From an uncultured virus (IMG/VR IMGVR_UViG_3300046359_000084) (Duplodnaviria; Heunggongvirae; Uroviricota; Caudoviricetes; Schitoviridae): DNA of 64,000 nucleotides. The notes beneath the pieces were generated by a model. That model made no database searches and was not told the DNA's origin. It worked only from the letters and a program-made list of their open reading frames with translations. Where the stretch lies: IMG/VR virus record IMGVR_UViG_3300046359_000084; one strand, written 5' to 3'. The number at the start of each line of letters is the position of its first letter. The first letter of the stretch is position 1. The translations under genes and the position numbers were made by a program. This document shows, piece by piece, positions 1 to 64,000 of this stretch.

Positions 1-1224
1 AAAACACAGACACAAGTTACTACTCCAGTCATAAATAAACTTATACTAAAGACAAATAAAACATTTACAGATAATTTCTATATGCAATTATCTTGGTTCA
101 ATATATCTGAAACTTTATATACAGGAGTAGGTAGAACAGGTGCTAAACGTGGAGATCTATGGTGGGTAGATACTGATGTTGCTCCTCGAGCAGATTGGTG
201 GGCTATATATTTAGCTGGATTTACAGATACAACAACATCTGCTCCTTTAGGATTTAATAATATAAGTTCCTTTTTATATTTTCAAGTTGATGAAGATAAT
301 TATAAAGTTTTAAAAGTTACAGGCTTAGAACATAGAAACTATGTTTACAAGGGTAAATACACAAGTGTGAATAGTAAACAAGCATTACTTGACCCAGATA
401 AAAGTGATTTAATTATCCCTTTGCATGAACCAACATTAAAACGATTACCTGGTGCTTATAGAAATGAAGTTGTTGTTCGATCACATAATTTAGTATTTAA
501 TAGTTATGAGATTGTTAAACGTAGATGGTATCAAACAACTTGGTTCAAAATATTTGTTATTTATATATTGATTAATATTTTAGTTATTATTACTGTTGTT
601 ACTGTTGGTATTGGTACAGGTCCTGCTGGTACAGTTGCTGCTGCTATTGTTGCAGCATTAACTGTTACTGGTACTGCAGCCTTAGTATTAACTTTAATTT
701 TACAAATAGTGATTTCAGTCATTGCAGGAATAATAATAAAAACTATATTAGAAGAAGTTTTTAAATTATTTTTTGATGATGAACTTGCAGCATTATTAGC
801 TACTATTGGGACAATAGTGGTGACTATAGGTATTTCAGGAGCGTATGAAGGCGTATCATTTACAGAAGCAGCAGTTTCTATATTATCTGATCCATTAACA
901 TTATTAGCTTTAACAGTTAATGTAGCTGATGCTACTTTGACTTATGTTAATACAACTAATCAGAATAAACTGATTTCTGGTACAGAAAATGCTAAAAGAT
1001 TATTTGATAAAAATAAAAAAATTATTGAAAAAAATACAGAATTGTTTAATCTTGAACCAAAGATAGATAATACAGAAGAAATAATATTAGATACATTAGT
1101 TTTTCCAGAAAAAAGAAATGATTTCTTAACAAGGTCTTTAATTACTGGAACATCTGTTAGACAATTAACATTATCTATGGTATATGATTTTGTAGATTAT
1201 TCAAAAATTTTAGGTAAACTGTAA
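1..1224 (+). CDS. Virion structural protein, N4 gp53-like (5' truncated by window)
   Basis: Frame of ORF 82..1224 is open back to base 1; long hydrophobic segments after KRRWYQTTWFK; lies directly before gp52/gp51/vRNAP as in N4-like phages. Confidence 0.7.
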   Translation, partial: KTQTQVTTPVINKLILKTNKTFTDNFYMQLSWFNISETLYTGVGRTGAKRGDLWWVDTDVAPRADWWAIYLAGFTDTTTSAPLGFNNISSFLYFQVDEDNYKVLKVTGLEHRNYVYKGKYTSVNSKQALLDPDKSDLIIPLHEPTLKRLPGAYRNEVVVRSHNLVFNSYEIVKRRWYQTTWFKIFVIYILINILVIITVVTVGIGTGPAGTVAAAIVAALTVTGTAALVLTLILQIVISVIAGIIIKTILEEVFKLFFDDELAALLATIGTIVVTIGISGAYEGVSFTEAAVSILSDPLTLLALTVNVADATLTYVNTTNQNKLISGTENAKRLFDKNKKIIEKNTELFNLEPKIDNTEEIILDTLVFPEKRNDFLTRSLITGTSVRQLTLSMVYDFVDYSKILGKL

Positions 1225-1246
1225 CTTAACATAAAGGTGATTATAG

Positions 1247-1726
1247 ATGACTGGTAATAATGGAAATACAAGTGGGTTCTTTGATTTTCTCCCTAACATT
1301 TTTGGTTCAAGTGGTAACAATGGATCATCAATGTCTATGCCACGAACACAGTATGATACGTTACTAAGATCTAATGAATACATTGATTTTGAGAATCCTA
1401 GTGCTGGCGGTGGATCAGGTATTTCTAGTTTTGGGAAACTTGGGACTAATGGTGGTATGAATACTGGTATCAAAAATAATACACTTTCTGACTTAACTGG
1501 TATAGCACAATTAATTCAAGGTTTATCAGGTTTATATACAGGTTTTGTGGGTAATCAACAAGCTCGTAGATCATTAAATTTTACTAAAGATGCTTTTAAT
1601 AGACAAAATGCTCAACAAGTTAAAACATATAATAATTACTTAGAGGATAGAGCAAGATCAAGATTTGGTATTGAAGGTAAATCTCAAACTGAAGCTGATG
1701 CTTTTATTAAAAAACAAAGTTTATAA
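1247..1726 (+). CDS. Internal virion (ejection) protein, N4 gp52-like
   Basis: 159 aa, Gly/Ser/Asn-rich, C-terminal QQVKTYNNYLEDRARSR motif, no Cys, synteny. Confidence 0.7.
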   Translation: MTGNNGNTSGFFDFLPNIFGSSGNNGSSMSMPRTQYDTLLRSNEYIDFENPSAGGGSGISSFGKLGTNGGMNTGIKNNTLSDLTGIAQLIQGLSGLYTGFVGNQQARRSLNFTKDAFNRQNAQQVKTYNNYLEDRARSRFGIEGKSQTEADAFIKKQSL

Positions 1727-1737
1727 GGATTACCGTT

Positions 1738-4428: not shown

Positions 4429-4440
4429 AGGTAATTACCT

Positions 4441-7400
4441 ATGGATAAACTTATTCCAAATTTAAATCAAATTGGTCGTAATTATGGTATAACTGCTAAA
4501 GATTTACCTAAAGTTAATTCTCCTAAAAGTCTTGATTATGATCCTAATTTACCTACAGTAAATGAAGATTTATCTATACCTAATACAATAGATATGAGAT
4601 CTGTATCTCAACAATTAAAAGATATAAGTTTAGGTGTTGGTTCAAGTGCTGTTAGTACACTAGGTAATATTGGTGGAGCAGTTATTGGATCAGATGCTTA
4701 TAATTTAGGTAATGATATAAGTAATACATTTAATAATTTAAAAACAAATTATACAAAAAATCTTGAACAACAATTATCTCAAGAATCAGATATTGCTAAT
4801 AAAGTGTTTGATAAACAAGTAGAAAAAGCACCAACATCATTATCAGCATTAAATACAAGAATTAAACAAGTTGTAGCTAATATTGCTAATACAGATATAG
4901 AACAAGCTGCAAGTAGTACCTTTGGTTCAGCATTAGGATTAGCTCCTGTAATTGCTGCAACAGGTGGTATTGGTGGACTAGCAGGAGCAACAGGAGCAAG
5001 TGTAGGAGCATCATTTGGTGCAGGATTAGGTAGTTTAACTGATGCTGGTGGACAAGCATATCAACAAGTTATAAATACACCTATTGAACAGTTATCACAG
5101 ACTTCTCCATTATGGAATAATGTACTAGAACAAAGCAATGGTGATCCAAAATTAGCTAGACAAACACTTGCAGAAATAACTGCTAAAGATGCTAATATTA
5201 ATCCAACAAATGTAGCTTTAAGTTTTGGATTAGGTGCTGCAACAAATAATTTAGCTAAAGGTTTAGCTAAAGGTAAAATAATTAATTCTAATTTAAATAC
5301 TCCATTAAATGTAGGTATTGAGGCGATTGGTGAAGGTATTGATGAAGGTAAAACAACTTATGCTTCTAATCAAGCTATTCAAGATAATGTTGATCCAAGT
5401 CAGTCTTTATCAGAAGGTGTTACAGCATCAATTACACAAGGTCTTGTTGGTTCAGGTATTACATCAACTCCATCACTTGTAGGTAATACAATTCAATCAG
5501 GATTAGAAATTGCTAAAGATGTTACTCAAAAACCAGAAGATAAAGAAGTTAGTAATATAATTAAAGAAGTTAATAAATCCTCAGAAACTGTATCTAGTTT
5601 GGTTCAACCAACAGAGAATATTCCTAATAATGAATTGATCCAAGCTGCTAATAGTAAACTTATTGCTGGTAAAGAAGATATATTTAATTTTGTATCAACT
5701 GAATATCCTAATGTTGATCTTAATAAGATGTATCCTAATAGTGATAAAGAAACACAGTTATCTACACTAGCAGGTGTTAATAATTTAATGAATGTTATTA
5801 ACAATAATGATTTTAAAACAAATCAAGAGAAGATAGAAACTGCTAGATTATTTAAAACATTAGTTAATGATATTAGAGATGGTTCAATACCTTTATTAGC
5901 AGAAACTACAGAAGCTGATAAAATTGTAAATCAAGAAATTAAAAGGCAACAACAATTACTCGAACAGTTTACACAAACAACAAAATATCAAAATTCTATA
6001 AAAGAGTTAGAAACTCTCACACAAGAGGATAATAAAGAAATTGAAGATATTATTTCTACTGGATCAAAAGAAGATATTGTATTGAACCAACGAAAAATAA
6101 AGAATGTGTTTAATCAAACTAAAACTGTATTTGAAAATAATCCATTAGGTATTAGTGAAAAGTTTATTAAGTATTTATATGATAACAAAGAAATATTGTC
6201 TAAAAACACAGATTTTACACAAGAAGATTTAGATTTTATTGATACGTTATATAATACAAAACAAGATGAACAAGCAGCAAAATCTGTTAATGAAGAAATT
6301 AATTCTAATGTGGATAATGCTGATGAATTAGTTAAATCAAATGTTGATAATGTGTCTTATGAAATATCTGATATAGGTAAAGCAGATGGTAAGAAATCAT
6401 TATCACAACATATTAAAGGTATTGTTACAGCGTTAAATAGTGAAACAAAGACAGCTAGAAATCAAGATGGTATTGATAATACTGCTGATGAATTGATTAA
6501 TAATTTAGGTGGTTTTGCTGGACACATGAAACGTAAAGCAGAAGCTGCTATACAGTCTATTAATGGTGGTAAAGGTGAACAAATTAAGTTTGATCCGTTT
6601 AGTGGTTTCAGACAATACAATAAAGATAATGAAAGATCTAAAGCATCTGTATATGTTAATCTTGGTTCAAAAAACTCTATTTATACAGGATTAGCTGTAT
6701 TTAATGATGCGTACAGTACAATCAATACATATAATAATATGGTCAAAGAAGCTCAAAGACAAGGGTTACAATTAGAAACTGATTTGATTGAATTACCTCA
6801 AGTACCAGAAGCATTGTTAAAAAATGTAAGTGATTCTGTTAGAGAAAGATTTAATAATATTGCTCCAGTAAAAACAACAGTAACTGAACCAACACAAGAA
6901 AATAAACAAAAAGATAAAAAGAAAACTAATACAAGTTTTAGATCTGTTAAAAAAAATCTTAAAAAAGTTGTTGAGAATAACCCTATTACAGATACTACTG
7001 AACCAGAAAATAATATACCTGATTCTAATGTTAATGATGTTAAACAAATACCTACTACTAAGACTGAAGGTATTACTACTAAAAATGATAGTGATAAAAC
7101 TAATGATAACAAAGAGTTATTTAATACTTTAACTACTAAAGTAGGTAAAGTTGCTACTAATTTAGTTAATGATCAAGTAACAAAAACTGATGAAAATATT
7201 ACTAATGATAAAGTAGATAACAATGTTCATAGTGCTGGTTCAATACAAGAATCTTATTACACTGATGAAGAGGATTTATTAAAAACTTATAAAACCAAAG
7301 AATTTAAAAAAATAACTAATCGAAGTAATAAAGATGCACCTTTGACATTTAAAACATTCTTTCCTAAAATTAAAGAAGGTATATTAAATGTAAATTTTTA

Positions 7401-10400
7401 TACAAATTTATTTACTGATCCAACAAGATTAATAGAAATATTTAATCCTATTGTACCTAATAATGATTTTGAAACTATTGATAGTAATATTGTTATTAAA
7501 AGATTTAACAACTTTATAAATAAGACAGCAAATTCTTTAATAAATAATTTAACAGATATTGCTAAACAATCTGCTATAGGTAAAATATCTGTTGGTTCAA
7601 AAAATTATAGTTCTGAACAAGCATTACATTTAAGATTTTTATTAAACTCACAAGATGAGTTAGATCGTGATTTAGTATATAAAACATCTATGGCTTATGT
7701 AGATTGGTCATTAAACTTATCAAATGAAAAATTAATTACAGCTGAATTGTTAGGATCAAAAGCTGATGATTATACAGATTATTCAGGTAAAGATGTTCAT
7801 ACATTAGTACAAGAAGTAAATACTTTATTAAACCTAATTAAAAAATATTGGGGTGTTGAAGAAGATAATAATCAATCCCAGACATACACAGTAGGTATAG
7901 CAGAATTATTAGCAAGATATTTAATTACTAATTCTGAAGAGTTTGGTGCTACACTTAAATATATCAACACTAATGAGAGTAATGATGATGTTACTCAGAT
8001 ATATGAAACTTATGTTTTAACAACTAAAACACCTTATATTAGTGATCCAAACAACAAAGATAATACTCCATATAATATTTATAAAAAATCATATTTTAAT
8101 CAAACAAATTTTCTTAAAAAGATTACACAAAATAATGATGATATTGGTTATTTAATTAATGAACCAATAACAGATATTGATAGCCGTATTTCAGGTCGTA
8201 ATACTAACGTAACTAAGTTTACTCAAAATGCTATTAAACAATTACAGAATATTAAATTAAAACTTAATAAACCAATGTATGATTTATATAGACGTATTGG
8301 TCAAAAGAATTTATCTTTATTGTTTTCGTTACAAAATAAATCATTTAAACCTTTTGATAATTTAAATAAATCTTTTGTTAAAACATTAACTGGACATGAA
8401 TTAACAACTAACGAAAATATGAAAATAGCTATGTCTATTGGTTCACAGTTAGATAGTTTAAATGATCCAGAAGCAGGTGTTTACTTTAAATATAACACAA
8501 CATCTGTAAACAGATTACAAGAAGCCTATGGTGGACAGCAATCGAATAAACATTCAAGACAGTTACTTCTTACAGAAGAATATAGTGTTAATTTGAAAAG
8601 TGATGATAAAACTGATTTAAATTGGTATAGAGCAGCTATTGCTCAAAATCTAGGATTAGTTAAATTAGAACAAATTGATAATTTTAGATCAATCGTAAGT
8701 AAACTAAATGATTTTAAAAACAAACCAGAAGTTAAGAACTTTTTTAATTATTTAAATGATCCAAAACAAAAATTTGATATTAATTTAATTAATGATTTAA
8801 AAAACTTATTTGATAATGAACCAGAAGAAAAACATATATACGGTTTAACGGAATTAAATAAATATCTTAATGCTATTAAAAATAATGATACTTTTTTATC
8901 AACAATGATTGTATTAGAAATTGATGGTATTGCTAATGGCTATAACAATGCTATAGGTAACTATAATACATCATTCTTAGATAATAAATTACAGACATTA
9001 ATGCAAAGAGGTGGATTGTTTTATAACAATGATTTTACTACAAGTAATGAGTTTTTTAATAATGTTACTGGTGACACAAATGATAGTTATAATAACGTAC
9101 AAAGTTTATTCATTGATGAATTACAAAACCCAAACAAAATTATAAAAATAAATGATAAATTCTCTAAAGTAAGTTTTATTGATTTATTTCCTGAAATAAG
9201 ATCTCAAGTAATTCCTTTATTACAATCTGTTAAATTAACAGAAGAAAATAAAGATATATCATTACCTCGATCAGAAATAAAAGGTTCTGTTATACCTATT
9301 ACTTATGGTTCTGGTTCATTAGGTACAAGTAAAAAGATGCTTAAATCTTTCTTAGATAAAGTAGCTTTAGATCTTTCTATTCAAGATAATGTTATTACAG
9401 ATCAAAATAATTTAATTGATACATTAACATTTATGTTATCGTTCTCAGAACTTAATACAAATATTAAAACAAATAAAGATGGTAAAAAACTTACTACAAT
9501 TAATTTTAAAAGATTTAATGAAAATCAAATTCAAGAAATTAAAACAAATATATCTAAACGAATTAAAAATTCTGAATTATTTGAATTAACAAAGAAAGAG
9601 TTTAATTCTGCTGCAAAAGTATTTCAATCAATCTTTGGTTCAGAAGTACATTCTATAACTAAACAAACTCTTAATTCTGCTGGTAGAAATATTGATACAA
9701 TTCAACAGTTTACAAATCTTCAATCAGAAGTAGGTAAACGTGTTTATGAAGATTTAAGAGAACAAAAACTAAGAGAAATTAATAAATCTATTAATGAATT
9801 AGAAGATAATACAAAAAATATCTTACAGTTAAGTAAGAACCAAGAAAAAGAAATATTTAAACAATTACAAGAAGATAATATTTTAACCGAGTTAAAACAT
9901 AAAAATCATGTATTTGATTTAGGTACATCAGAAAAAATATTATCTAAAAATCCTTTATACGGGTTTGATTCATTTTCTTCTAATAGTAAAAGTGTTGGTT
10001 CATATTACACTGGTGTTGAAGCATTAGGTGTAGCATTTAGTGCTACATCAAATATTGGTAATGGTGATGGAATGATGATCCAACACTTTTATAATAATCC
10101 AGATATAAAAGATATTTTACCATTTATTACACAAACTTATGATGGTATCTATGTTCCTGTAAAATATGTGACTCGAGTATCTGAAGCAATTAATAAAGCT
10201 GTATGGAAAACATATCAAGAAAATTTAATATTACCTGTAGCAAAGCAATCGTATAATTTTTATACAGGAACACTAAAATATTTAAATTCTGTGGATAAAG
10301 ATAAACAACAAGAATTATTAAGTACAATTATTGAAGTTAGTCGTATTAAAAATCTACAAGAATTGTCTGATATTGAATTAGTTAAAAATTATCTTGGTAA

Positions 10401-13400
10401 TGAGGTAAAACAATTAGTTACTCTTGCTGCTGAAAGACAAGCATTTATTGATACAGTTAGAGATCATGTTGATGTTAGTATTAATCAAATGGGAGGAGGT
10501 AGAATACCTTATATACATAAAGCATCTAAAGAAAAAATTATAGATGAAAATATATTAAGAGAAATCCAAGAACAAAAATTTAATGAGTATTATAATAAAT
10601 ATGTTACAGATCTTAAATTAGAAAAACAAAATAAAGGGCTTGGAGAAATAAAACTTACTAATATTAAATCAATTAATGAAAATCAAAGTGATATAGAATT
10701 ATTTGATAAAAATTTATATAATAAATTAACTCAAAAAAGAAACACAAATGGTAGTATTTTATTAAAGGATATAGTCCCTGAATTATTAGAATTAAAAAAT
10801 GTACCTAAATCTTTGATAAATAAAATTATTCAACTTATTGATCCAAACACAGTAATATATTTAAGAGATATAGAAAATCCTGATCTTACTTCGTTGGATC
10901 AAATTAAAGATAATTTATTTCCTGAATTAAAAAATAAATCTATTGAAAATGGATTATTTACTAAAGATCTAGTAACAAGACAAACACATTTATTTATTAA
11001 TAATGTTTCCACAGAAACATTAGTACATGAATTAAATCATGTTATTCATGTTGATATGTTTAGTAAGTATTTTGGTGATAGTTCATTATTAACTGCTGAA
11101 CAAGTTGCTTATATAGATGTTCTTGTAACTCTAAAAGATGAGTTTTTAGAACTAGAATCTAATGATCGTATTGTAAATACAGTAAAACAAATTATCAGTA
11201 CAGATAATGATGTTGTTAATATGTCTGAATTTGTTTCATGGGTATTAACAAATAAACAATTAAAGACTAAATTAGAAAATATTAAATTAGATAATTCAAT
11301 TTTAAATAAAATAATTATCATTGTTGATAAAGTGTTTAATGCTTTAGTTAAATTTTTTTCTAATAGTAAGGATAAAAATCAAGATAACTTTTATGATACA
11401 TTATTGTTTACATATCTTAGAGCTTTACCAAAAAATAAAAAAGATATTAATCCAATTCAATTATTACAAGTTAATACATTAAACCAAAAACAAATAAATA
11501 GTTTTACTGAAATTAATACAAAAATATCTGCATTGGTTCAAAAACATCAAGATAGATTTAAAACTGTATCTGAACCAAACAAAACAATGTTTAAAGATAT
11601 TAATAATCAACGTAGTTCTGATAATAAATTAATAACAAATCAATTAGAAACTGTATTTAATTTCAGTCCTGTAGAGAAAATTACATTTAAAAATTTAATG
11701 AATTTATTTGATTTAGGATTAGTAAACAAATCTTATAACATTAATAAATTACAACAAGTCTATAATAAATTTATTAACGAAGTATCTTATAAAGATTTTA
11801 TTGATTCAAACACAACAGAAAATCAAGCAAGACTTAAATATGAGAATATGACTGGATTTAATGAAAATAATTTAAAAGTATTTTTTGCACTATCTCAGAC
11901 TAATTCTATGGTTCAAGATGTATTATCAAGACTTATATTTAAAGAAAATAAATTAACAGGTATAGCAATATCTGATAAATTAAATAATTTAAAAATAGAC
12001 ATTTTAAATTCTATTGATCCAGTAAATGTAGTTGGTAATGGTGCTACATTGATGAATGGTATTACAGTTGATTATTTAAACAGTGAATTAGAAGCATTAG
12101 ATGAATTAGAAAGATTGAACCAAACAAAATATAATATTGATGGAAAGATAACTACAGCAGTTGTTGATTTATTTAATAAAGTTACAGATGATAAATACAA
12201 AGATGTGTTTAAAACTAATGCTATAAGTGCTGCATTTGATCGAGCATCAGCATTGATTGGTAAATCAGATACTAAACTACCACAAGCACTAAAAGACATA
12301 TTTAAAGAACTTGTTGGTAAGACTGTTACAAGTGAAAATATTGAAAACTTAATGAACATTGTTAAAGACAAAGTACAATCTGTTAAAAATTCTTATAAAA
12401 CAATTTTACCACAAAACATAAAAGAAGAATTTAAAACAAATCCTGATAATAAAGTATTTGAAAATTTAACTACTACAGTTGGTAAAACAGATATATTTTC
12501 TCTTGGATCAACAAGATCATTTAATGAGATATTTAAAATATTATCAAGCGATAAAAATGTTCAAGAAGAAATATCTATTATAGAAAAAAGATTAAAGAAT
12601 AAAGATTATATTAGAAAATCTAAACAATTAGCTAATTATTTAATCACTGGTTCAGCAGGATTTAATTTACTTACTAATGCTAACAGTATCAGTATATTAG
12701 CAGGAGAAAGTAATTTTTTAGATGTTGATCCAAGTGATACAGTTGTACAAGATATTGATCATTTAGTTTCATTGTATGCTTTTCAACAAACAACAGATAG
12801 CAATAAACAAGAATTAAGAGATCTTATTAAAAATGATACAAGTGGATTACATATCTTATTAAGTAATTTACATGAGCTTAATCAGAATGAAAATAATAAA
12901 ACTCTTGGTTCAGAAATCAATAAGTATAACCGTAGAAAAGGATATTTACCATTCTCTATCAGAGATGGTAAGAAATTAATCATAGCCACAGACACACAAA
13001 AACTAAAGCTATTAGAAGATGGATTTGTTAGAGTAGGTGATTACACTGATCCAGTATCAAAAGTAAAAAAAGGATATTATTTATCTTCTGTTATTGGTTC
13101 ACCATATTTACAAGGTATTATGCAGACTGTTAATAACAGTATTAATGGTATGAATGTTTACAGTGGTCAAGATATGACAGGACAGTTTGCTGATTATATT
13201 ACAGACACTTTATCTATTGATAAGATCTATGATGCTACAAAGAACAATCCTAATGCAGCAGAATCATATATTCCTGTGATTGGATTAAAAGGTACAATTA
13301 TTGCTTATCAACGTAATATGCGTCAAAATATGTTAGATTTATTGAACCAAGAAAAAGACTTAACAAACCTTATGGGGATAATGAAATCAAGACAAGTTGA

Positions 13401-14664
13401 GGAACAATTAACACAAGAGTTTAATAACAAACTTATTGATAGAACATTCGATTTATACAAAAATGACTTTGATAAAAGTACATATACAAATATTGCTACA
13501 TCTATTGATCCAGTGATCAAAGATACATGGAGAGTTATCCCTAGTGAAACAAAAACATATATAGAATCTGTATTTGGTAAAGATAAATTCTTTGTTAGAA
13601 ATGATTTAATAAACAATTCATTAGGTTATAGATTACCTTCTGTTAGTGATTTATTTACTGGTAAAACAAAATTATCAAAAGAAACAAAAGATGTTATTGA
13701 AAAAATGATGAGATTAGTTCTTGGATCAAAAGCGTATATATATCTTAAAAATGCTGAAGATGGATTACAAGAATATGTTAAATACACAAAAGAATGGATT
13801 TATTTAAAATCTATTGTTGTCCCTGCTTCTAATACAGCAAGTAATATATTACAATTAGTGATGAATGGAGTACCATTAACATACATTGCTAAAAATGGTT
13901 TAAAAGCGTTATCTGAATTAAAACTTTATCATAAAAATGAATTAAGAGAAATTAAGATAAACACAATATTACCTTCTGTTGATGAACCAACAAAGAAGAA
14001 ATTACAACAAGAACTTAAAGTTATTGAAGAAGTTTTAAATAATTTATCTATTAAACCATTAGTTGATGCTGGAGAGTTTTCTGCTGTTAATGAAGGTGTT
14101 AGTGAAATTGATGGATTGTTATCTGCAAATAATATTGGAGAGTTTTTAAATAATCAAATTAATAAAATTGTAGATACAAAAAAAGTAAATAGTAAGATAC
14201 CTGAATCATTAAAAACAGTTAGTAAGTATGCTATTGTAGCTAAAGATACTGCGTTATATAAAGGCTTAGTACAAACTGTTTTGTATAGTGATTATGTTAG
14301 TAAAGCAATTTACTATAATCATTTAGTAGAAAATCAAAATATGGATATGGAAAATGCTAAACGATTAGTATCTGAGGAATTTATTAATTATAATTTTTTA
14401 CCTGGACGTACTAGATCGTATTTAGAGTCTGTTGGATTATTATGGTTTTGGAATTTTAAAATAAGATCATTAAAAGTAGCAGGAAGAATGATTGTCAATA
14501 ATCCGTTCAAATCATTGCTTGGATCATTGTTTGCATCAGAACTTCCTGCTTATGGATTAGGTACACCAATACAAGATAATATTGTTACTAACTTCTCAGG
14601 AGTAGGAGTTAATAACTTATTACGTCCTGCTGCACATAATCCATTATTAAATGTTATTAGTTAG
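4441..14664 (+). CDS. Virion-encapsidated RNA polymerase (N4 gp50-like vRNAP)
   Basis: 3407 aa; motifs TSVNRLQ, LEIDGIANG (A), RSEIKGSVIPITYGSG (B), IGNGDG and TYDG (C region); HELNH zincin-like motif; no Cys seen. Confidence 0.97.
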   Translation: MDKLIPNLNQIGRNYGITAKDLPKVNSPKSLDYDPNLPTVNEDLSIPNTIDMRSVSQQLKDISLGVGSSAVSTLGNIGGAVIGSDAYNLGNDISNTFNNLKTNYTKNLEQQLSQESDIANKVFDKQVEKAPTSLSALNTRIKQVVANIANTDIEQAASSTFGSALGLAPVIAATGGIGGLAGATGASVGASFGAGLGSLTDAGGQAYQQVINTPIEQLSQTSPLWNNVLEQSNGDPKLARQTLAEITAKDANINPTNVALSFGLGAATNNLAKGLAKGKIINSNLNTPLNVGIEAIGEGIDEGKTTYASNQAIQDNVDPSQSLSEGVTASITQGLVGSGITSTPSLVGNTIQSGLEIAKDVTQKPEDKEVSNIIKEVNKSSETVSSLVQPTENIPNNELIQAANSKLIAGKEDIFNFVSTEYPNVDLNKMYPNSDKETQLSTLAGVNNLMNVINNNDFKTNQEKIETARLFKTLVNDIRDGSIPLLAETTEADKIVNQEIKRQQQLLEQFTQTTKYQNSIKELETLTQEDNKEIEDIISTGSKEDIVLNQRKIKNVFNQTKTVFENNPLGISEKFIKYLYDNKEILSKNTDFTQEDLDFIDTLYNTKQDEQAAKSVNEEINSNVDNADELVKSNVDNVSYEISDIGKADGKKSLSQHIKGIVTALNSETKTARNQDGIDNTADELINNLGGFAGHMKRKAEAAIQSINGGKGEQIKFDPFSGFRQYNKDNERSKASVYVNLGSKNSIYTGLAVFNDAYSTINTYNNMVKEAQRQGLQLETDLIELPQVPEALLKNVSDSVRERFNNIAPVKTTVTEPTQENKQKDKKKTNTSFRSVKKNLKKVVENNPITDTTEPENNIPDSNVNDVKQIPTTKTEGITTKNDSDKTNDNKELFNTLTTKVGKVATNLVNDQVTKTDENITNDKVDNNVHSAGSIQESYYTDEEDLLKTYKTKEFKKITNRSNKDAPLTFKTFFPKIKEGILNVNFYTNLFTDPTRLIEIFNPIVPNNDFETIDSNIVIKRFNNFINKTANSLINNLTDIAKQSAIGKISVGSKNYSSEQALHLRFLLNSQDELDRDLVYKTSMAYVDWSLNLSNEKLITAELLGSKADDYTDYSGKDVHTLVQEVNTLLNLIKKYWGVEEDNNQSQTYTVGIAELLARYLITNSEEFGATLKYINTNESNDDVTQIYETYVLTTKTPYISDPNNKDNTPYNIYKKSYFNQTNFLKKITQNNDDIGYLINEPITDIDSRISGRNTNVTKFTQNAIKQLQNIKLKLNKPMYDLYRRIGQKNLSLLFSLQNKSFKPFDNLNKSFVKTLTGHELTTNENMKIAMSIGSQLDSLNDPEAGVYFKYNTTSVNRLQEAYGGQQSNKHSRQLLLTEEYSVNLKSDDKTDLNWYRAAIAQNLGLVKLEQIDNFRSIVSKLNDFKNKPEVKNFFNYLNDPKQKFDINLINDLKNLFDNEPEEKHIYGLTELNKYLNAIKNNDTFLSTMIVLEIDGIANGYNNAIGNYNTSFLDNKLQTLMQRGGLFYNNDFTTSNEFFNNVTGDTNDSYNNVQSLFIDELQNPNKIIKINDKFSKVSFIDLFPEIRSQVIPLLQSVKLTEENKDISLPRSEIKGSVIPITYGSGSLGTSKKMLKSFLDKVALDLSIQDNVITDQNNLIDTLTFMLSFSELNTNIKTNKDGKKLTTINFKRFNENQIQEIKTNISKRIKNSELFELTKKEFNSAAKVFQSIFGSEVHSITKQTLNSAGRNIDTIQQFTNLQSEVGKRVYEDLREQKLREINKSINELEDNTKNILQLSKNQEKEIFKQLQEDNILTELKHKNHVFDLGTSEKILSKNPLYGFDSFSSNSKSVGSYYTGVEALGVAFSATSNIGNGDGMMIQHFYNNPDIKDILPFITQTYDGIYVPVKYVTRVSEAINKAVWKTYQENLILPVAKQSYNFYTGTLKYLNSVDKDKQQELLSTIIEVSRIKNLQELSDIELVKNYLGNEVKQLVTLAAERQAFIDTVRDHVDVSINQMGGGRIPYIHKASKEKIIDENILREIQEQKFNEYYNKYVTDLKLEKQNKGLGEIKLTNIKSINENQSDIELFDKNLYNKLTQKRNTNGSILLKDIVPELLELKNVPKSLINKIIQLIDPNTVIYLRDIENPDLTSLDQIKDNLFPELKNKSIENGLFTKDLVTRQTHLFINNVSTETLVHELNHVIHVDMFSKYFGDSSLLTAEQVAYIDVLVTLKDEFLELESNDRIVNTVKQIISTDNDVVNMSEFVSWVLTNKQLKTKLENIKLDNSILNKIIIIVDKVFNALVKFFSNSKDKNQDNFYDTLLFTYLRALPKNKKDINPIQLLQVNTLNQKQINSFTEINTKISALVQKHQDRFKTVSEPNKTMFKDINNQRSSDNKLITNQLETVFNFSPVEKITFKNLMNLFDLGLVNKSYNINKLQQVYNKFINEVSYKDFIDSNTTENQARLKYENMTGFNENNLKVFFALSQTNSMVQDVLSRLIFKENKLTGIAISDKLNNLKIDILNSIDPVNVVGNGATLMNGITVDYLNSELEALDELERLNQTKYNIDGKITTAVVDLFNKVTDDKYKDVFKTNAISAAFDRASALIGKSDTKLPQALKDIFKELVGKTVTSENIENLMNIVKDKVQSVKNSYKTILPQNIKEEFKTNPDNKVFENLTTTVGKTDIFSLGSTRSFNEIFKILSSDKNVQEEISIIEKRLKNKDYIRKSKQLANYLITGSAGFNLLTNANSISILAGESNFLDVDPSDTVVQDIDHLVSLYAFQQTTDSNKQELRDLIKNDTSGLHILLSNLHELNQNENNKTLGSEINKYNRRKGYLPFSIRDGKKLIIATDTQKLKLLEDGFVRVGDYTDPVSKVKKGYYLSSVIGSPYLQGIMQTVNNSINGMNVYSGQDMTGQFADYITDTLSIDKIYDATKNNPNAAESYIPVIGLKGTIIAYQRNMRQNMLDLLNQEKDLTNLMGIMKSRQVEEQLTQEFNNKLIDRTFDLYKNDFDKSTYTNIATSIDPVIKDTWRVIPSETKTYIESVFGKDKFFVRNDLINNSLGYRLPSVSDLFTGKTKLSKETKDVIEKMMRLVLGSKAYIYLKNAEDGLQEYVKYTKEWIYLKSIVVPASNTASNILQLVMNGVPLTYIAKNGLKALSELKLYHKNELREIKINTILPSVDEPTKKKLQQELKVIEEVLNNLSIKPLVDAGEFSAVNEGVSEIDGLLSANNIGEFLNNQINKIVDTKKVNSKIPESLKTVSKYAIVAKDTALYKGLVQTVLYSDYVSKAIYYNHLVENQNMDMENAKRLVSEEFINYNFLPGRTRSYLESVGLLWFWNFKIRSLKVAGRMIVNNPFKSLLGSLFASELPAYGLGTPIQDNIVTNFSGVGVNNLLRPAAHNPLLNVIS

Positions 14665-16755: not shown

Positions 16756-17077
16756 TTTCTTCTTTCTTTTTATCTTTTAATATTAAATCATTTACAGGAA
16801 GTCTTAACAATAATGATAAAATGTATAATTGTCTTGAATCTATATATGTGAAAGCATCTTTTTTTAATAAGTCGTTTAAATAACCAATAAGCGTATTATC
16901 AATAGTAAGATCATGTTTCATTAAAACTGATTTAAATATTATTTTATACATCTCTAAATATTTATTAATTAAATCGTCAGTAGTTAAATTTAATTTAATT
17001 AATTGATTATTAATTAAATCAATATTCAATTTTGTGTGTATCAAAACATAGCAGTAGTCTAACATATTGTGCTGCAT
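16745..17077 (-). CDS. Hypothetical protein
   Basis: 110-aa ORF tightly coupled to both neighbours. Confidence 0.55.
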   Translation of the reverse strand: MQHNMLDYCYVLIHTKLNIDLINNQLIKLNLTTDDLINKYLEMYKIIFKSVLMKHDLTIDNTLIGYLNDLLKKDAFTYIDSRQLYILSLLLRLPVNDLILKDKKKEENDK

Positions 17078-37230: not shown

Positions 37231-37299
37231 TTATTTAATTATTGATTAATGTTTTTAATTCACTTATATTGTTAAAGGTTAATATTTTTCCTATGAACC

Positions 37300-48462: not shown

Positions 48463-48463
48463 T

Positions 48464-50059
48464 ATGATTAAACCAATAAGTGTTGATGAGTATTTAAATA
48501 ACATTGATTATCGAGATCTGAATGATAATTATATTCCTTCAGAATATGTACTTAAATATTTATCTTATATGAAATTAATTACTAAAGATAATCCTGAATC
48601 GCACCCTACTCCAATAATACATTTAAAAATGTTAGATGCAATTATACAATCTAAAGGATTAGATATAATTAATTTAGTGTTTCGTGGTTCAGGTAAGACA
48701 TCATTGTTTTGTGAGTTCTTTTTACCTATCTTAGCAATAGAAGAAGAGTTACCTAACTTTGGAGAAGTTACTGGCGTATTATCTATTAATGATACTATGG
48801 AGAATGGAGCTAAGTCTTTAAGAAAGAATATGGAATCACGTTATGATAAATCTCCATTCTTACAAGAGTGGTTACCTAAAGTTATATTTACTGATCCATA
48901 TATAGAGTTTACTAATAAAAGAGGACATCAATTAGGTATTAACTTGTTTGGTGTTACAAGCAGTATTCGTGGTAAAAAGATGTTTGGTAAACGCCCACAG
49001 ATTGCAATACTTGATGATTTGATTTCTGATAAGAACAGTCAATCAACTACAATTATGCAAGATATAAATGATACAGTTTATAAGAGTCTTGAACCAGCAT
49101 TAGATATGTCACAGAAAAAGATTATATGGAATGGTACTCCGTTTAATAAAGAAGATCCATTATATAAAGCAGCAGAATCTGGAGCATATTATGTTAATGT
49201 GTTTCCTGTTTGTGAGAAGTTTCCTTGTGATAAACAAGACTTTAAAGGAGCATGGGAAGAAAGATTTAGTTATGATGCACTGTTAAAGACATATAATAAA
49301 TTATCTTTAAATGGGCAATCAGGGGCATTTCAACAAGAAATGATGTTAAGAATATCATCACCAGAAGATAGATTGATCCAAGATAATGAGATTCGTTGGT
49401 TCAGTAGAGTGGATTTGTTAAAGCAAAAATATAATTTTAATTTTTATATAACAACAGACTTTGCTACATCGGAAAAGAAAACAGCAGATTATAATGTTAT
49501 ATCTGTTTGGGCTTATAGTAATAATGGAGATTATTTCTGGGTAGATGGTATTTGTAAAAGACAGACTGTAGATGTTTCGATTGATCAGTTATTTGATTTT
49601 TGTCAGGAATATAAACCACAAACTGTAGGTATTGAGAGATCAGGACAACAAGGAGGATTTATATCTTGGATCGAAAAGGAACAGATGAGAAGAAATGTAT
49701 TTTTTAATATAGCTAGACAGAAGGGTAAAACAGAATTAGGTATTTACCCCACAGGGGATAAGTTAAGTAGGTTTAATTTAGTAGTACCATTGTTTAGACA
49801 AGGTAAGATACATTTTCCTACTGAATTAAAAGAAACTACTACTGTATCAGAATTTCTAAGTGAAATTAATTTAGCTACAATTAATGGATTAAAGGGTAAA
49901 GATGATTGTTTAGATACAATATCTATGTTACAAGAAATGAATATGATTAAACCTTCATTAGATAGTAACACTAGAAAAAGTGATAATAGTAACAATATTT
50001 ATTTTGACAATAGTTTTGAAGATGAGTACAATCAAATAAATTCATATATAGTAGATTGA
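48464..50059 (+). CDS. Terminase large subunit (N4 gp68-like)
   Basis: FRGSGKT, ILDDL, NGTPF, ITTDFATS, KDDCLDTIS. Confidence 0.95.
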   Translation: MIKPISVDEYLNNIDYRDLNDNYIPSEYVLKYLSYMKLITKDNPESHPTPIIHLKMLDAIIQSKGLDIINLVFRGSGKTSLFCEFFLPILAIEEELPNFGEVTGVLSINDTMENGAKSLRKNMESRYDKSPFLQEWLPKVIFTDPYIEFTNKRGHQLGINLFGVTSSIRGKKMFGKRPQIAILDDLISDKNSQSTTIMQDINDTVYKSLEPALDMSQKKIIWNGTPFNKEDPLYKAAESGAYYVNVFPVCEKFPCDKQDFKGAWEERFSYDALLKTYNKLSLNGQSGAFQQEMMLRISSPEDRLIQDNEIRWFSRVDLLKQKYNFNFYITTDFATSEKKTADYNVISVWAYSNNGDYFWVDGICKRQTVDVSIDQLFDFCQEYKPQTVGIERSGQQGGFISWIEKEQMRRNVFFNIARQKGKTELGIYPTGDKLSRFNLVVPLFRQGKIHFPTELKETTTVSEFLSEINLATINGLKGKDDCLDTISMLQEMNMIKPSLDSNTRKSDNSNNIYFDNSFEDEYNQINSYIVD

Positions 50060-59516: not shown

Positions 59517-61658
59517 ATGGTTGATGTGAAACAAAAGTTTACAAGTTGGAAACAAGAACCTTCTTTATTAGATTTAAAACAAGATTATAATAATTGCTTA
59601 AATAACCATAAACAGTTTGTTTCTATGATCCAAAAATGGGAAGATTTAAAGAATGTTGTAGGACAATATAAACCTACTAAAAGACAAGGTAAATCTTCTC
59701 TTCAACCTAAGACTATTCAGAAACAATTTGAATGGAGGTATCCTAGTTTAACTGAACCATTTTTAAATACACCTAATTTATTTAAAGCATTACCAATTAC
59801 ATTTGAAGATGTTAAAGGTGCAAGACATAATGAATTAGTTTTAAATTGGCAATTCAATACAAAGATTAATAAAGTAAAATATTTTGATCAATTTGTAAGA
59901 CGTAATGTTGATCAAGGAATATGTATTAAACAGGTTTGTTGGATCAGAGAAACTAAAGAAGTAGAAGTTGATGTACCTATCTATAGTTACACTGAAATTG
60001 AAGATGAAGAAGCATTTAATCAGATCCAAGAACTAATACAGTTAAAAAATATTAATCCTAATGAGTTTAGTAATGTAGATCCTTTGTTACAAGAAAGTGT
60101 AAAATATTTTGAAGAAAATAATATTATCACTCAAGTTGTTATTGTTGATTATACAAAAGAAAAACAAGAAAAGATTATTAAGAACCAACCTGATATAAAG
60201 ATTCATCACCCTAAGAATGTTTATTTTGATCCTTCTTGTGGAGGAGATTTTGAAAAGAGTAATTTTATAATTGTATCTTATGAAACATCTTTAGCAGAAT
60301 TAAAGAAAAAAGGTATTTATCAAAACTTAGAAAGCATTAATATTAGTAATGATGTCTTATCTGATACAGACCATAAATCAACAAATACAGATCAGAACTT
60401 TAATTTTAAAGATAAAAGTAGAAGTAGATTAGTTGCTTATGAGTATTGGGGTAATTATGATATTAATGATTATGGTTATTTAGTACCTATTGTTGCTACT
60501 TGGGTTGGAGAAACATTAATCCGCTTAGAAGAAAATCCATATCCAGAAGGAATGAATCCTTTTGTCATTACACAATATAGACCAATTCTTGATTCTATTT
60601 ATGGTGAATCAGATGCTGAGTTACTAGAAGATACACAGAAAACTATTGGTGCTTTAACAAGAGGTATTGTTGATACATTTGCTTCTGCATCAAATGGTCA
60701 AGTAGGTATTGCTCAAGGATTTATTGATGTACAAAATAAATTAAGAAAAAACCAAGGATTAGATTATGAGTTTACTGCTAATAGTATTCCTCAACAAGCT
60801 ATCTATGAACATAAGTTTCCTGAAGTAAGTCAGAGTACAATAATATTTTTACAACAACAGAACCAAGAAGCTGAATCATTAACTGGTAAAAGTTCTTTTA
60901 ATCAAGGTATTAATGGTAATGCTTTAGGTGATGTAGCTGCTGGTATTAAAGGTACATTGAAAGCTACTACTGAAAGAGAATCTGCTATATTAAGAAGGTT
61001 GGTTCAAGGTACAATAGAAGTTGCTAGAAAGATTACTATTCTTAATGCTGTATATTTATCAGAAAAAGAAGTTATTAGATTAACAAATGATTCTGAATTT
61101 GTAACAGTTAGAAGAGAAGATCTTGTTGGTGAATTTGATATTGATATTAAAATTGCTGTACCAGAAATTAATGAAAAGAAAGCTAATGATTTAGCATTTA
61201 TGTTACAAACAATAGGACCTAGTTTATTACAAACTATCGGACCTGAGGCTGGTATAGAGTTTAATAAATTAATACTAGGTGAGATTGCTTATCTTAAACA
61301 AATGCCTGAATTAGAACAAAAGATTAAAGCATTTACATTACCACCTAAAGAACCAAGTCCAGAAGAACAACAAATGATGCAATTAGAACTTCAAATGAAA
61401 CAGTTAGAAATAGCTAAGTTACAGTCTGAAGTTGCTGTTAATGAAGCTAAAGTTAAAGAATTAAATGCTAAAGCTGATGCTGTATCTATTGATAATGAAG
61501 AAACTTATACAGGTGTTAAACATAATAAAGAAGTTGTTAAACAACAAGCACAAGCTAAAGGTAATCAGAGTTTAGAGATCACTAAAGGATTAATGAATAA
61601 AGATATTGATGGTAAAGATCTTGCTGCTGCAATACAATATAATGAAACTACAGAGTAA
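59517..61658 (+). CDS. Portal protein (N4 gp59-like)
   Basis: WKQEPSLLDLKQD, QFEWRYPSLTEPFL, AYEYWG, IRLEENPYP, DLAFMLQTIGP. Confidence 0.95.
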   Translation: MVDVKQKFTSWKQEPSLLDLKQDYNNCLNNHKQFVSMIQKWEDLKNVVGQYKPTKRQGKSSLQPKTIQKQFEWRYPSLTEPFLNTPNLFKALPITFEDVKGARHNELVLNWQFNTKINKVKYFDQFVRRNVDQGICIKQVCWIRETKEVEVDVPIYSYTEIEDEEAFNQIQELIQLKNINPNEFSNVDPLLQESVKYFEENNIITQVVIVDYTKEKQEKIIKNQPDIKIHHPKNVYFDPSCGGDFEKSNFIIVSYETSLAELKKKGIYQNLESINISNDVLSDTDHKSTNTDQNFNFKDKSRSRLVAYEYWGNYDINDYGYLVPIVATWVGETLIRLEENPYPEGMNPFVITQYRPILDSIYGESDAELLEDTQKTIGALTRGIVDTFASASNGQVGIAQGFIDVQNKLRKNQGLDYEFTANSIPQQAIYEHKFPEVSQSTIIFLQQQNQEAESLTGKSSFNQGINGNALGDVAAGIKGTLKATTERESAILRRLVQGTIEVARKITILNAVYLSEKEVIRLTNDSEFVTVRREDLVGEFDIDIKIAVPEINEKKANDLAFMLQTIGPSLLQTIGPEAGIEFNKLILGEIAYLKQMPELEQKIKAFTLPPKEPSPEEQQMMQLELQMKQLEIAKLQSEVAVNEAKVKELNAKADAVSIDNEETYTGVKHNKEVVKQQAQAKGNQSLEITKGLMNKDIDGKDLAAAIQYNETTE

Positions 61659-61987: not shown

Positions 61988-62001
61988 AAATAGGAAAAAT
62001 T

Positions 62002-62991
62002 ATGATTGATGAAGAAATTGAAAAAAAAGATATATTTGATAATAGTGAACTAGAAACTATTGAACCAGATATAACAACAGAAAAAACTACAGAAACAATA
62101 CTTGATACAGTTGTTGAACCAGAAACAGAAACTACTGATGATATTTCTACAGAAGAAGTAACTGAACCAGAGATTGATGAGTTTGATTACAAAACAGCTT
62201 ATAAAAATTTATTAAAATTTAAAGCTGATGGACAAGATATTGAATTAAATGATGTTAATGAATTAGTTTCGCTGGCTCAAAAAGGTGTTAATTATACTCG
62301 TAAAACTAAAGAGATTTCTCAATATAATAAGTATATTAAAACTTTAAAAGATAATGAATTACTAGATGATGATAAGATTAACTTTTTAATAGATTTACAT
62401 AAAGGCGATAAACAAGCTATCACTAAACATTTAAAAGAATTAAATGTAAATCCTGTAGAATTAGACACTGATTCTGAAACTACATATAAAAGCAAAAGTT
62501 ATGTACCTGATGATGTTACAATACAAAAACAATCTTATGTAGAGAACTTGTATAGTGATCCAGATGGTAAAGCTGTTATTGATGATATAAATAATTGGGA
62601 CGATATTAGTATTAATTCTATTGCAGAGAATGTTGCTCAATTAGCGGATTTAACACAACATAAGAAATTAGGGTATTACGATATAATTATTAAAGAAATC
62701 CACAGACAGGAACTTTTAGGTAATTTGAGTAATATTCCATACCTAGATGCTTATGCGTCTATTGGTAAACAACTTGTAGAACAAGGTAAATTAGGTAATG
62801 TAACTCCTAATCCTCAACCTCAAAAAGTTGTAGATGTAAAGAAAGCCGTAACTGATATAAAACTAAATCAAACAAACATTCAGAAATTATCTCCTTTATC
62901 TGGTAAGACAACCAGTAAACAAGAGTTAGATCCTGGTTCAATGAATGATGAAGAATTTGTCAAATACATGAAAACTAAATATAAATTTTAA
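62002..62991 (+). CDS. N4 gp57-like scaffold-type protein
   Basis: Acidic N-terminus, FKADGQDI, LAQKGVNYTRK, SMNDEEF tail; directly before the major capsid gene. Confidence 0.8.
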   Translation: MIDEEIEKKDIFDNSELETIEPDITTEKTTETILDTVVEPETETTDDISTEEVTEPEIDEFDYKTAYKNLLKFKADGQDIELNDVNELVSLAQKGVNYTRKTKEISQYNKYIKTLKDNELLDDDKINFLIDLHKGDKQAITKHLKELNVNPVELDTDSETTYKSKSYVPDDVTIQKQSYVENLYSDPDGKAVIDDINNWDDISINSIAENVAQLADLTQHKKLGYYDIIIKEIHRQELLGNLSNIPYLDAYASIGKQLVEQGKLGNVTPNPQPQKVVDVKKAVTDIKLNQTNIQKLSPLSGKTTSKQELDPGSMNDEEFVKYMKTKYKF

Positions 62992-63015
62992 ACATTTTAA
63001 ATAAGGATACCTTTT

Positions 63016-64000
63016 ATGGTAATGTCGTATAATGCACCTCCAGGATCAGCTTCTGATATTGGTAGTCAACTAACTACTTATGAGATTGCTCGCCAAGCAA
63101 TCTATGATAATAAACATATTATGGTTTTTTCACAGTTGTCAACAACTATGGAAATGCCTAAGAATAAAGGTAAAACAATTAAAGTACGTCAATATTATCC
63201 ATTACTTGACTCTCGTAACGTCAATGATGAAGGTATTAATGCCGCAGGTACTACTATTGCTAACGGTAACTTGATTGGTTCATCAAAAGATATTGGTGTT
63301 ATTCCTTCTTTAATGCCTGTTCTTGATGAAGCTGGTGGACGTAAAAACCGAGTTGGTTTTACTCGTGCTGATGTTCAAGGTACAATTAGCCAATATGGTT
63401 TCTTTTTTGAATATACCAATGAGTCGCTACAATTTGATTCTGATCCAGAATTGTTAATGCACATTACTCGTGAAGCAACAAATGCTGCTATGGAATTAGA
63501 AGAGCATTTGATTCAATTAGATTTGATTGATGGTGCTGGTGTTGAATCTTACTGTGGTGGTGCAACATCTGTTGTTACTATGAGTGGTAACTTAGGACAA
63601 TCAGCAGATATTGTATCGGTAGCTAAACTTCTTGAAGTTAATAAAATTCTTGATAAAAACCGTTTGTCAAAGAATACAACTATTATTACTGGTACTCGTT
63701 TAGTAGATACTAAAACTGTTCAAGCTGCTCGTTATGCGTATATTGGACATGATTTAGAAAATACAATTCGTGGATTAGTTGATAGACACAATAGACCTGC
63801 ATTTATTGGTGTAGAACAGTATGCTTCTGGTTCAACTGTAGCGAATGGTGAAATTGGTGCAGTAGGTCCATTTAGATTTATTGTTGTTCATCAAATGCTT
63901 GCTTATCCAAATAGAGGTGCTTTAGTTGGTACTTCTGGAACAGCCAATGCTGGATACAAAGCTAGCGGTACACGTTATGATGTTTTCCCAATTCTTATTG
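63016..64000 (+). CDS. Major capsid protein (N4 gp56-like), 3' truncated by window
   Basis: Hand translation MVMSYNAPPG...MPKNKGKTIKVRQYYPLLDSRNVNDEGINAAG...GNLIGSSKDIG...GGRKNRVGF; AAGGA RBS; absent from the ORF track because it has no stop in the window. Confidence 0.93.
   Translation, partial: MVMSYNAPPGSASDIGSQLTTYEIARQAIYDNKHIMVFSQLSTTMEMPKNKGKTIKVRQYYPLLDSRNVNDEGINAAGTTIANGNLIGSSKDIGVIPSLMPVLDEAGGRKNRVGFTRADVQGTISQYGFFFEYTNESLQFDSDPELLMHITREATNAAMELEEHLIQLDLIDGAGVESYCGGATSVVTMSGNLGQSADIVSVAKLLEVNKILDKNRLSKNTTIITGTRLVDTKTVQAARYAYIGHDLENTIRGLVDRHNRPAFIGVEQYASGSTVANGEIGAVGPFRFIVVHQMLAYPNRGALVGTSGTANAGYKASGTRYDVFPILI

Follow-up and report, generated by a model that had tools for sequence, protein, structure and literature searches.

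A short asymmetric DNA word is enriched across N4-like phages and may be a template signal for their gp43-type primase

The genome of an uncultured N4-like phage was analysed as a 64,000-nt window (IMG/VR record IMGVR_UViG_3300046359_000084; 27.0% guanine plus cytosine [GC]) and found to be filled with the asymmetric word TGGWTCA (W, A or T; complement TGAWCCA). Both strands carry it through the synonymous codons and dipeptides that are used, at a level near the limit allowed by the proteins. It is the AT-rich-lineage form of a word that belongs to the phage family, with the core TGGTTC and a looser pattern of TGGNTC followed by any base but G. Very probably it is a family-wide signal at the DNA level that is read by conserved phage machinery. 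We tentatively propose that it is the template start or recognition signal of the family's gp43-type primase.

TGGWTCA in the window

The array of sites covers the entire window:
1..64000, 128 on the plus strand and 89 on the minus strand: TGGWTCA array, median gap 221 bp, largest gap 1692 bp

Both strands together hold 217 sites (3.4 per kb), made up of 88 TGGTTCA, 40 TGGATCA, 52 TGAACCA, and 37 TGATCCA, where Markov models overall predict ~11–26. TGGTTCA occurs 140 times on both strands compared to 5.6 expected from base composition, 7.7 from an order-1 Markov model, and 13.0 from an order-3 model; the corresponding values for TGGATCA are 77 compared to 5.6, 6.8, and 12.7. The word is therefore 10–25-fold in excess over base composition or order-1 expectation and 6–11-fold over order-3. 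When all 7-mers were ranked by z score, TGGTTCA was first (47.7) and TGGATCA third (26.9), with the overlapping TTGGTTC between them. Most GGTTC pentamers (140 out of 168) lie inside TGGTTCA, and the runner-up among words of the form TGNNNCA has 49 copies. Sites occur throughout the window, at a density of 1 to 6 per kb (2–12 per 2-kb bin). A preliminary description of this DNA, made from its letters, had proposed the enrichment from 27 sites counted by eye in positions 1–6000 and 21 in 14900–20100. The enrichment is real, both hand counts are exact, and all eight positions given as examples (94, 426, 541, 888, 1053, 1303, 1321, and 1411) are true sites. The ends of the window are bridged by one IMG/VR contig, which adds 3,066 bases (L003:14485–17550, the gap) and closes a circular map of 67,066 bp, on which the word occurs 225 times.

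Codon-aware null models were used to separate the word from the proteins that are written in it. Coding sequence contains 207 sites, compared to 55.8 ± 5.6 (maximum 74) in 300 synonymous shuffles within genes and 27.0 ± 4.8 when codon order was shuffled. An excess is present in all five possible combinations of frame and sense (10 vs 2.5, 22 vs 4.5, 66 vs 16.0, 21 vs 2.2, and 88 vs 30.5); the sixth is impossible because it would place a TGA stop in frame. Frame use is very uneven, with 66 sites read as xxT-GGW-TCA (Gly-Ser) and 87–88 as xxT-GAW-CCA (Asp/Glu-Pro). Counts above both kinds of shuffle, whatever the frame or orientation, place selection at the level of the DNA rather than the proteins, as the preliminary description had held, and the two shuffles together indicate that codon choice and dipeptide choice are both bent toward the word. 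The word is present in 210 of the 411 codon contexts able to carry it, including 53 of 61 for x-Glu-Pro, 41 of 54 for x-Asp-Pro, and 69 of 97 for x-Gly-Ser. The related AGGTTC is nearly missing from the window (6 compared to 43 expected), an outcome of the drive toward T at the preceding third codon position. Of 46 sites compared with a 92%-identical relative, 34 were kept, 12 were lost, and 13 others were gained, for totals of 46 and 48. Individual sites turn over and their number stays constant.

Copies in intergenic DNA had been cited as a further sign of selection on the DNA. Those at 37294–37333 and 39627 are real, and there is no intergenic enrichment. The gene list first gave 11 intergenic sites, of which six fall in real genes at 19232–20248 and 34611–35624. 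The five that are truly intergenic are at 37294, 37302, 37326, 39627, and 41598, and three of these form a cluster:
37294..37333, no strand assigned: three copies of the word, in which TGAACCAAGAAT and ATTCTTGGTTCA form a 12-bp inverted repeat with a 7-base loop

The hairpin within 37286–37345 (12-bp stem) is made of copies of the word, and another TGAACCA is located just upstream. A T-rich run follows it on the plus strand, and the adjoining genes are on the minus strand.

Spread, lineage forms, and polarity of the word in N4-like phages

Whether the word occurs in other Schitoviridae had been posed as a question, and for the core TGGTTC the answer is yes. In coliphage N4 (NC_008720; L114 and L115), TGGTTC/GAACCA is the top over-represented hexamer (220 compared to 35.9 expected), and its extended form CTGGTTC has 110 copies compared to 8.5 expected. 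Coding sequence of N4 contains 198 TGGTTC sites where synonymous shuffles give 70.3 ± 6.5, and six more sites occur in its 1.5-kb non-coding stretch. The density of the word is ~3.1 per kb in N4 and ~0.5 per kb in 50 kb of Escherichia coli. Neither control had a comparable excess (T7, 30 vs 20.8 ± 4.0; 50 kb of E. coli, 27 vs 28.1 ± 4.2). Among uncultured relatives, a member of the same species found elsewhere (G001, 46 kb) has 161 sites compared to 19 for the reversed control word. A relative with 50% portal identity and 27% GC (G002), a 57%-complete fragment without the replication block, also carries this word, though less densely. Our literature search, which placed subscription-only papers on N4 replication outside its scope, turned up no account of a single short word saturating the genome of N4 or of its family, and it gave no lead on N4 replication or on recognition by the N4 primase.

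When all 6- and 7-mers were scored without preselection against synonymous shuffles, a GAACCA-based word ranked first in the window, N4, G002, G003, G004, and G012. The z score of the top 7-mer was 7.1 in G002, 12.4–18.6 in the window, N4, G003, and G004, and 18.7 in G012. In the same scan a GAACCA-based word was not first in G005, G006, G007, G009, or T7. Relatives were then surveyed more widely with the portal gene as the query, which matched roughly 490 Schitoviridae records:
59517..61658, plus strand: portal gene, used to fetch relatives

In this survey, 47 portal-centred loci and the window were each scored against synonymous shuffles. TGGTTC had a z score of at least 3 in 30 of 39 loci with a portal identity of ~37% or more and in none of nine loci at 35% or less. 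A different part of the genome, sampled as 49 primase-centred loci, gave a summed count of 943 compared to 440 expected. Three whole genomes that looked weak at first (G015, G018, and G019) still have 2.4–2.8-fold more TTGGTTC than expected. Most N4-like contigs are enriched and more distant podophages are not, and the enriched contigs range from 26% to 63% GC. The hosts extend from E. coli to Sinorhizobium, and it is the phage family, not the host, that the word tracks.

The two contigs G003 and G004 were characterized further. G004 (L024–L026) is 54.8 kb in length and called complete, G003 (L027–L028) is 40 kb and about half complete, and both have terminal repeats. Each encodes a gp43-type primase, a Sak4 protein, a single-strand DNA binding protein (SSB), and a Cas4-like exonuclease. 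A gene resembling the virion RNA polymerase (vRNAP) of N4 is present in G004 (3046 aa) and none was seen in G003; a tblastn search for N4-type RNAPII was negative for both contigs. Both seem to be relatives of N4-like phages that are reduced or have diverged. Two other phages with gp43-type primase homologues and no excess of TGGTTC have other words in mild excess. G007 (L121–L124) has 29 copies of GGTAGAT and 27 of GGTAGCT (6.6 and 7.9 expected), and G009 (L118–L120) has 63 copies of CTAGGG (22 expected).

Flanking bases and the fourth base of the word differ between lineages. In the window, a pyrimidine precedes 184 of the 217 sites and a purine follows 152, giving the form YTGGWTCA. The corresponding forms are CTGGTTC in N4, GTGGTTC in G003, GGTGGTTC in G004 (96 compared to 0.5 expected), and TTGGTTC in G012 (106 compared to 20.8). 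At the fourth base, N4 uses T (TGGTTC, 2.8-fold), G (TGGGTC, 2.2-fold), and C (TGGCTC, 2.0-fold), and its second enriched word is TGGGTCA/TGACCCA (41 compared to 11.3 after synonymous shuffling). The window uses T (2.5-fold) and A (2.0-fold), with C and G not used. This two-base fourth position identifies the W of the window as an AT-rich reading of the looser TGGNTC. The phage in the window is the clearest case of the word, and it allows an A that N4 leaves unused (TGGATC, 0 compared to 37 expected). We read the lack of TGGATC in N4 as avoidance of GATC-containing sites, because T7 also lacks TGGATC (0 compared to 18) and N4 lacks GATATC. The base after the word is seldom G in any lineage, and in the window it is A at 89% of TGGTTC sites.

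Sites were assigned to the sense or antisense strand of the genes that contain them. Late-gene regions have 731 sense and 415 antisense sites, with 30 of 32 loci biased in this direction. Early and middle genes (49 loci) have 388 sense and 555 antisense sites; 39 loci are antisense-rich, seven are sense-rich, and three are tied, and both orientations are above codon-aware expectation. The late sense strand and the early antisense strand are one DNA strand. In all seven whole records the late-sense strand is the richer, by 1.3–1.9-fold (130:90 in N4 and 128:89 in the window). Whichever way the genes are transcribed, one DNA strand is preferred by the word, about 1.4–1.8-fold, and GC skew tracks gene direction only. 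Mean gaps between sites are 502 bp on the plus strand and 716 bp on the minus strand (largest, 1866 and 3709 bp), and both template strands carry the word at about the spacing of Okazaki fragments. Pairs of sites had no preferred distance or helical phasing (coefficient of variation [CV] of gaps, 0.93; random, 0.99 ± 0.065).

Taken by strand, gaps look more even on the plus strand (CV 0.74) than on the minus strand (CV 1.13). Copies on the minus strand thin out between 50 and 62 kb.

The primase and other candidate readers

The proposed reader is encoded within a conserved module of four genes in the replication block:
17077..19278, minus strand: gp43-type primase (PHROG 2135, E 9.8e-289)
19232..20248, minus strand: PD-(D/E)XK exonuclease, N4 gp42-like, which heads the conserved exonuclease-primase-Sak4-SSB module
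16033..16755, minus strand: Sak4-like single-stranded DNA annealing protein, N4 gp44-like
15285..16016, minus strand: N4-type SSB, gp45-like

Genes matched by tblastn in all of N4, G003, and G004 are the primase, gp69-like, TerL, and portal genes, with the vRNAP gene also matched in G004. At the level of PHROGs, the exonuclease-primase-Sak4-SSB module is common to these phages as well. The primase is the sole one of the shared genes with a precedent for reading sequence, and every enriched phage whose replication block was sequenced carries a gp43-type primase. If the word is its start signal, the primase would need a word of 6–8 bases, which is too rare in random sequence (~1 per 6 kb at 27% GC). 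With a recognition word of that length, the genome would have needed enough copies to offer one site every ~500–700 bases on each strand, the scale of Okazaki fragments. Each lineage would have rewritten about half of its permissive codon contexts to supply the word, and the strand bias would reflect which strand more often serves as lagging-strand template. The word would then act as a genome-wide priming code, by which the phage replisome would also recognise phage DNA as self. It is possible, though we hold this wider history with less confidence, that N4-like phages co-evolved the wording of their whole genomes with the template specificity of one MCM-AEP-PriCT primase, and that the word was adjusted in each lineage in step with primase drift (YTGGWTCA in the window, CTGGTTC/TGGGTC in N4, TTGGTTC in G012, and GGTGGTTC in G004).

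Structure prediction suggests that the primase has an N-terminal MCM-like AAA+ ATPase, a C-terminal AEP primase domain, and a terminal PriCT-1-like helix bundle. The predicted local distance difference test (pLDDT) score is 93 for the full model and 95.4 for the C-terminal segment. The N-terminal half resembles MCM subunits (Foldseek E 1.5e-6 to 3e-4, probability 1.00; template modelling [TM] score 0.25–0.5, partial alignment), and its Walker A (G86/K89), Walker B (D185/E186), and arginine finger (R264/R265) residues are invariant or nearly so. Residues 450–733 match AEP primase-polymerases. The best match is the S-2L PrimPol (Foldseek E 1.6e-4, TM 0.47), for which VIA gives a Z of 7.8 over 131 residues with a root-mean-square deviation of 3.4. 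Further AEP matches with Z of 5.0–6.4 are RepB', LigD-pol, Prim-PolC, CAPP, PriS, and MPXV E5, and PrimPol is among the AEP matches as well. Among 62 sequences, conservation is 90% or higher at D539 and D541 ("IVLDxD"), and T569 and K570 are conserved ("YTTKSHT"); we take the DxD and T-K-S-H to be AEP motifs I and II. The model ends in a bundle of five to six helices. A sequence and profile search of the primase against solved structures returned nothing at E of 0.1 or lower.

Two phage enzymes offer comparisons. The T7 primase is a zinc-finger/TOPRIM protein (DnaG-type) and in this differs from the N4-family primase, which is AEP-type by its predicted fold. The sites of T7 gp4 primase are given as 5'-(G/T)2GTC-3' in PMC12839067. 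They too are a short asymmetric word, read in T7 on a single-stranded template, and TGGTC there can be set beside TGG-N-TC here. T7 is modestly enriched in its own primase sites over synonymous shuffles (TGGTC, 70 vs 48.7 and 52 vs 36.0). This is ~1.3–1.5-fold for a 5-mer, compared to 2.5–4-fold over codon-aware nulls and 10–200-fold over composition for the 6–8-mers of the N4 family. The NrS-1 primase-polymerase resembles the predicted N4-family primase in having an AEP catalytic domain and a helix bundle. According to PMC8718748, it recognises 5'-TTTGGTTA-3', its helix-bundle domain binds the recognition site, and a short GTG(A/G) site is reported too. The 8-base word TTTGGTTA shares TTGGTT with the TTGGTTC of the N4 family. 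Unlike NrS-1, the window primase is predicted to have its MCM-like ATPase first and its AEP domain last, and the structural likeness is weak. Drc/gp2-type cofactors that bind single-stranded DNA were ruled out as the reader, being reported in PMC7145618 as neither sequence-specific nor conserved across genera. The accessible part of PMC4889955 holds nothing on the N4 primase, and that of PMC10654107 nothing on GC content, primase, or DNA motifs.

Several results weigh against the primase as reader. Scores for the AEP fold are middling, with every Z below 8, and NrS-1 itself is matched at a Foldseek E of 0.16. The PriCT_1 (PF08708) hit at residues 670–724 (E 6.1e-4) scores 19.8 bits, below the cutoff of 21.1; the G003 homologue scores 17.3 bits and the G004 homologue has no hit. 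Full-length primase homologues are present in G007 (E 9.4e-84) and G009 (E 1.2e-166), yet neither phage has an excess of TGGTTC or any other word above a z of ~8. Strong primase matches in G015, G018, and G019 go with only a 2.4–2.8-fold excess of TTGGTTC, and in G006 (E 1.5e-299) with 1.6-fold. The presence or absence of the primase therefore failed as a predictor of enrichment, since homologues occur in non-enriched phages. A contrast of gene content between enriched and non-enriched phages likewise found no gene that separates the two groups. Conservation of sites against the 92%-identical relative is only slightly raised (67% fully identical compared to ~58–63% for control 7-mers), and there is no switch in strand preference along the genome of the kind that marks an origin. 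Finally, readings based on the terminase, on ejection, or on a Chi-like signal fit the polarity equally well.

The genes on which these and other alternatives turn are as follows:
47782..50059, plus strand: gp69-like and gp68-like terminase genes, common to G003 and G004
4441..14664, plus strand: vRNAP, 3407 aa (PHROG 2206, E=0, profile positions 93–3405 of 3406), which marks the phage as N4-like
26357..27655, minus strand: RecD/Dda-like helicase, N4 gp37-like
22854..25427, minus strand: DNA polymerase, N4 gp39-like
27945..28316, minus strand: GcrA-like gene (Pfam GcrA, E 1.2e-12), with only three database relatives
41276..41533: PHB_acc_N-like gene with a DNA-binding domain (Pfam, E 1.1e-6)

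Another conserved machine that works in one direction could read the word, either the terminase (gp68/gp69-like) during packaging or vRNAP and the ejection apparatus at entry, and the copies would then be landing, grip, or self-recognition sites. The gp69-like, TerL, and portal genes, and in G004 the vRNAP gene, are common to phages that carry the word; a strand preference that is constant genome-wide fits a one-way process, and the ~3.1 sites per kb of N4 compared to ~0.5 in E. coli fit discrimination of phage from host DNA. We nevertheless consider this unlikely, as G005 and G007 have gp69-like, TerL, and portal genes of their own without the enrichment and both strands are heavily populated everywhere. 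To our knowledge, moreover, terminases and ejection proteins are not known to require sites in such numbers, in the hundreds. A Chi-like signal is a still weaker candidate. It would attenuate or redirect an exonuclease-helicase (the phage gp42 nuclease with the gp37 helicase, or RecBCD/AddAB of the host), protecting linear and branched phage DNA and feeding recombination-dependent replication. The word is asymmetric and strand-biased, as Chi is, and among the phage genes are those for a RecB-family nuclease and a RecD-like helicase, together with Sak4, SSB, and RuvC. Chi words of hosts differ between hosts, however, and the core studied here is unchanged among phages whose hosts and GC contents differ widely. 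Half of the possible contexts are used, which is far beyond a few protective sites near ends, and there is no clear match to gp37 in G003 or G004. Chi, DNA uptake sequences, and cyanobacterial HIP1 (PMC5861425) are nonetheless like the N4-family word in being short, many-fold over-represented in coding DNA, and selected for number and not for individual sites. Those words are tied to the machinery of a host lineage (RecBCD/AddAB, competence, and methyltransferases), whereas the N4-family word belongs to a phage family across hosts. The N4-family word is not palindromic, and no cognate DNA methyltransferase of the kind linked to HIP1-like words was found in the window, although a host enzyme is possible.

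The remaining explanations are much less probable. Reported motifs of Dnd phosphorothioation are GAAC/GTTC and GATC; the preliminary description had pointed to a match with them and named a host modification target among its candidates. The likeness is to four-letter cores only, within a word of 6–8 bases. Modification in any form (Dnd/Ssp phosphorothioation, methylation, or a HIP1-like methyltransferase-linked word, enriched by selection for marks or by biased repair) is very improbable, as the word tracks the phage family across hosts and no methyltransferase, Dnd, Ssp, or BREX protein was matched among 81 proteins searched with PHROGs, 74 with Pfam, and 79 with PADLOC, or among four gap proteins searched with Pfam. 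PADLOC matched only generic RecD-like helicase models. Words one mismatch away are not consistently lost either, with AGGTTC, CGGTTC, and GGGTTC in N4 at 0.8–1.0 of expectation. We assign an equally low probability to a by-product without any reader, arising from a codon-pair or translational preference or from context-dependent mutation bias of the N4-type DNA polymerase. Such an origin would suit the concentration of sites in two codon-aligned classes, Gly-Ser and Asp/Glu-Pro, and the polymerase is common to all N4-like phages. The excess is nonetheless found in every frame and both orientations, and a translational effect would not be mirrored on the antisense strand; the word also occurs in the non-coding stretch of N4, its strand bias ignores the direction of transcription, and G007, G009, and G005 have the polymerase (E 2e-38 to 2e-26) without the word. 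Least credible is a phage-specific protein that coats the DNA at the word, for which the preliminary description had nominated GcrA-like, XRE-like, or HTH products. The window does encode GcrA-like and PHB_acc_N-type domains, but neither gene was matched by tblastn in N4, G003, G004, or G006, all of which have the same core word, and Pfam found no XRE or HTH_3 domain among 74 proteins. A core shared by N4 and N4-like phages of 26–63% GC thus speaks against these candidates, and of the readers suggested at the outset the priming signal is retained as the best explanation, if a tentative one.

If the primase does read the word, this would give a first handle on how a gp43-type primase chooses its sites. 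It would also explain a strong constraint on codons and dipeptides across a whole phage family and provide a natural series for the joint evolution of the specificity of a primase and the composition of its genome. Coliphage N4 has served as a model for decades. Regardless of mechanism, the word is a composition-independent marker for N4-like DNA in metagenomes, and it calls for caution in the recoding of N4-like phages.

Genome map, host, and avoided palindromes

The traits of Schitoviridae are present in the window, namely a giant vRNAP gene, a two-subunit RNAPII, an N4-type SSB, and a replication block resembling gp42–gp45. Gene order in this block is that of N4 gp42–gp45, with assignments to PHROGs 2051, 2166, 743, 2139, 2135, and 124 and tblastn matches to N4. 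Terminase, portal, and capsid genes and RuvC are also encoded. Inside the vRNAP gene the word has a density of ~4 per kb with the strands balanced. Early and late gene blocks diverge at ~47.75 kb, and by analogy with N4 the physical genome ends are probably at this junction (window positions 47730–47782).

There are no close cultured relatives: megablast gave no match, and portal and TerL identities to cultured phages are below 60%. An intermediate relative with an 84%-identical portal (P0002) was not found in the viral contig collection. All 24 public runs listed as containing the phage, in contig form, are freshwater metagenomes, and no RNA run is among those listed. Together with the GcrA-like gene and the 27% GC content, these hint at an AT-rich freshwater alphaproteobacterium as the host. 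The three relatives of the GcrA-like gene and a search for tRNA genes, which found none in the window, gave no host. An explanation of the word based on the host was dropped once the word proved to be family-wide.

Palindromes of 6 bp are widely avoided in the window and gap, with 12 of the 35 that have an expectation of at least 5 being absent (ACATGT, ACTAGT, AGTACT, ATCGAT, ATGCAT, CAATTG, GATATC, GGATCC, GGTACC, GTATAC, TACGTA, and TCTAGA). Eight more are nearly absent, such as GAATTC (1 compared to 20 expected). The 4-bp palindromes CCGG, CGCG, GCGC, and GGCC all have zero copies, and GATC is not avoided (245 compared to 233). G002 lacks only three of 31 palindromes, and the window phage and G002 may therefore face different restriction systems. 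N4 lacks ten of the 6-bp palindromes, among them AAGCTT, CTGCAG, and CAGCTG. The window also contains a nucleotide-metabolism cluster at 28459–30513 that comprises a dCTP-deaminase-like gene, a DUF3310 "nucleotide kinase"-like gene, and ThyX.

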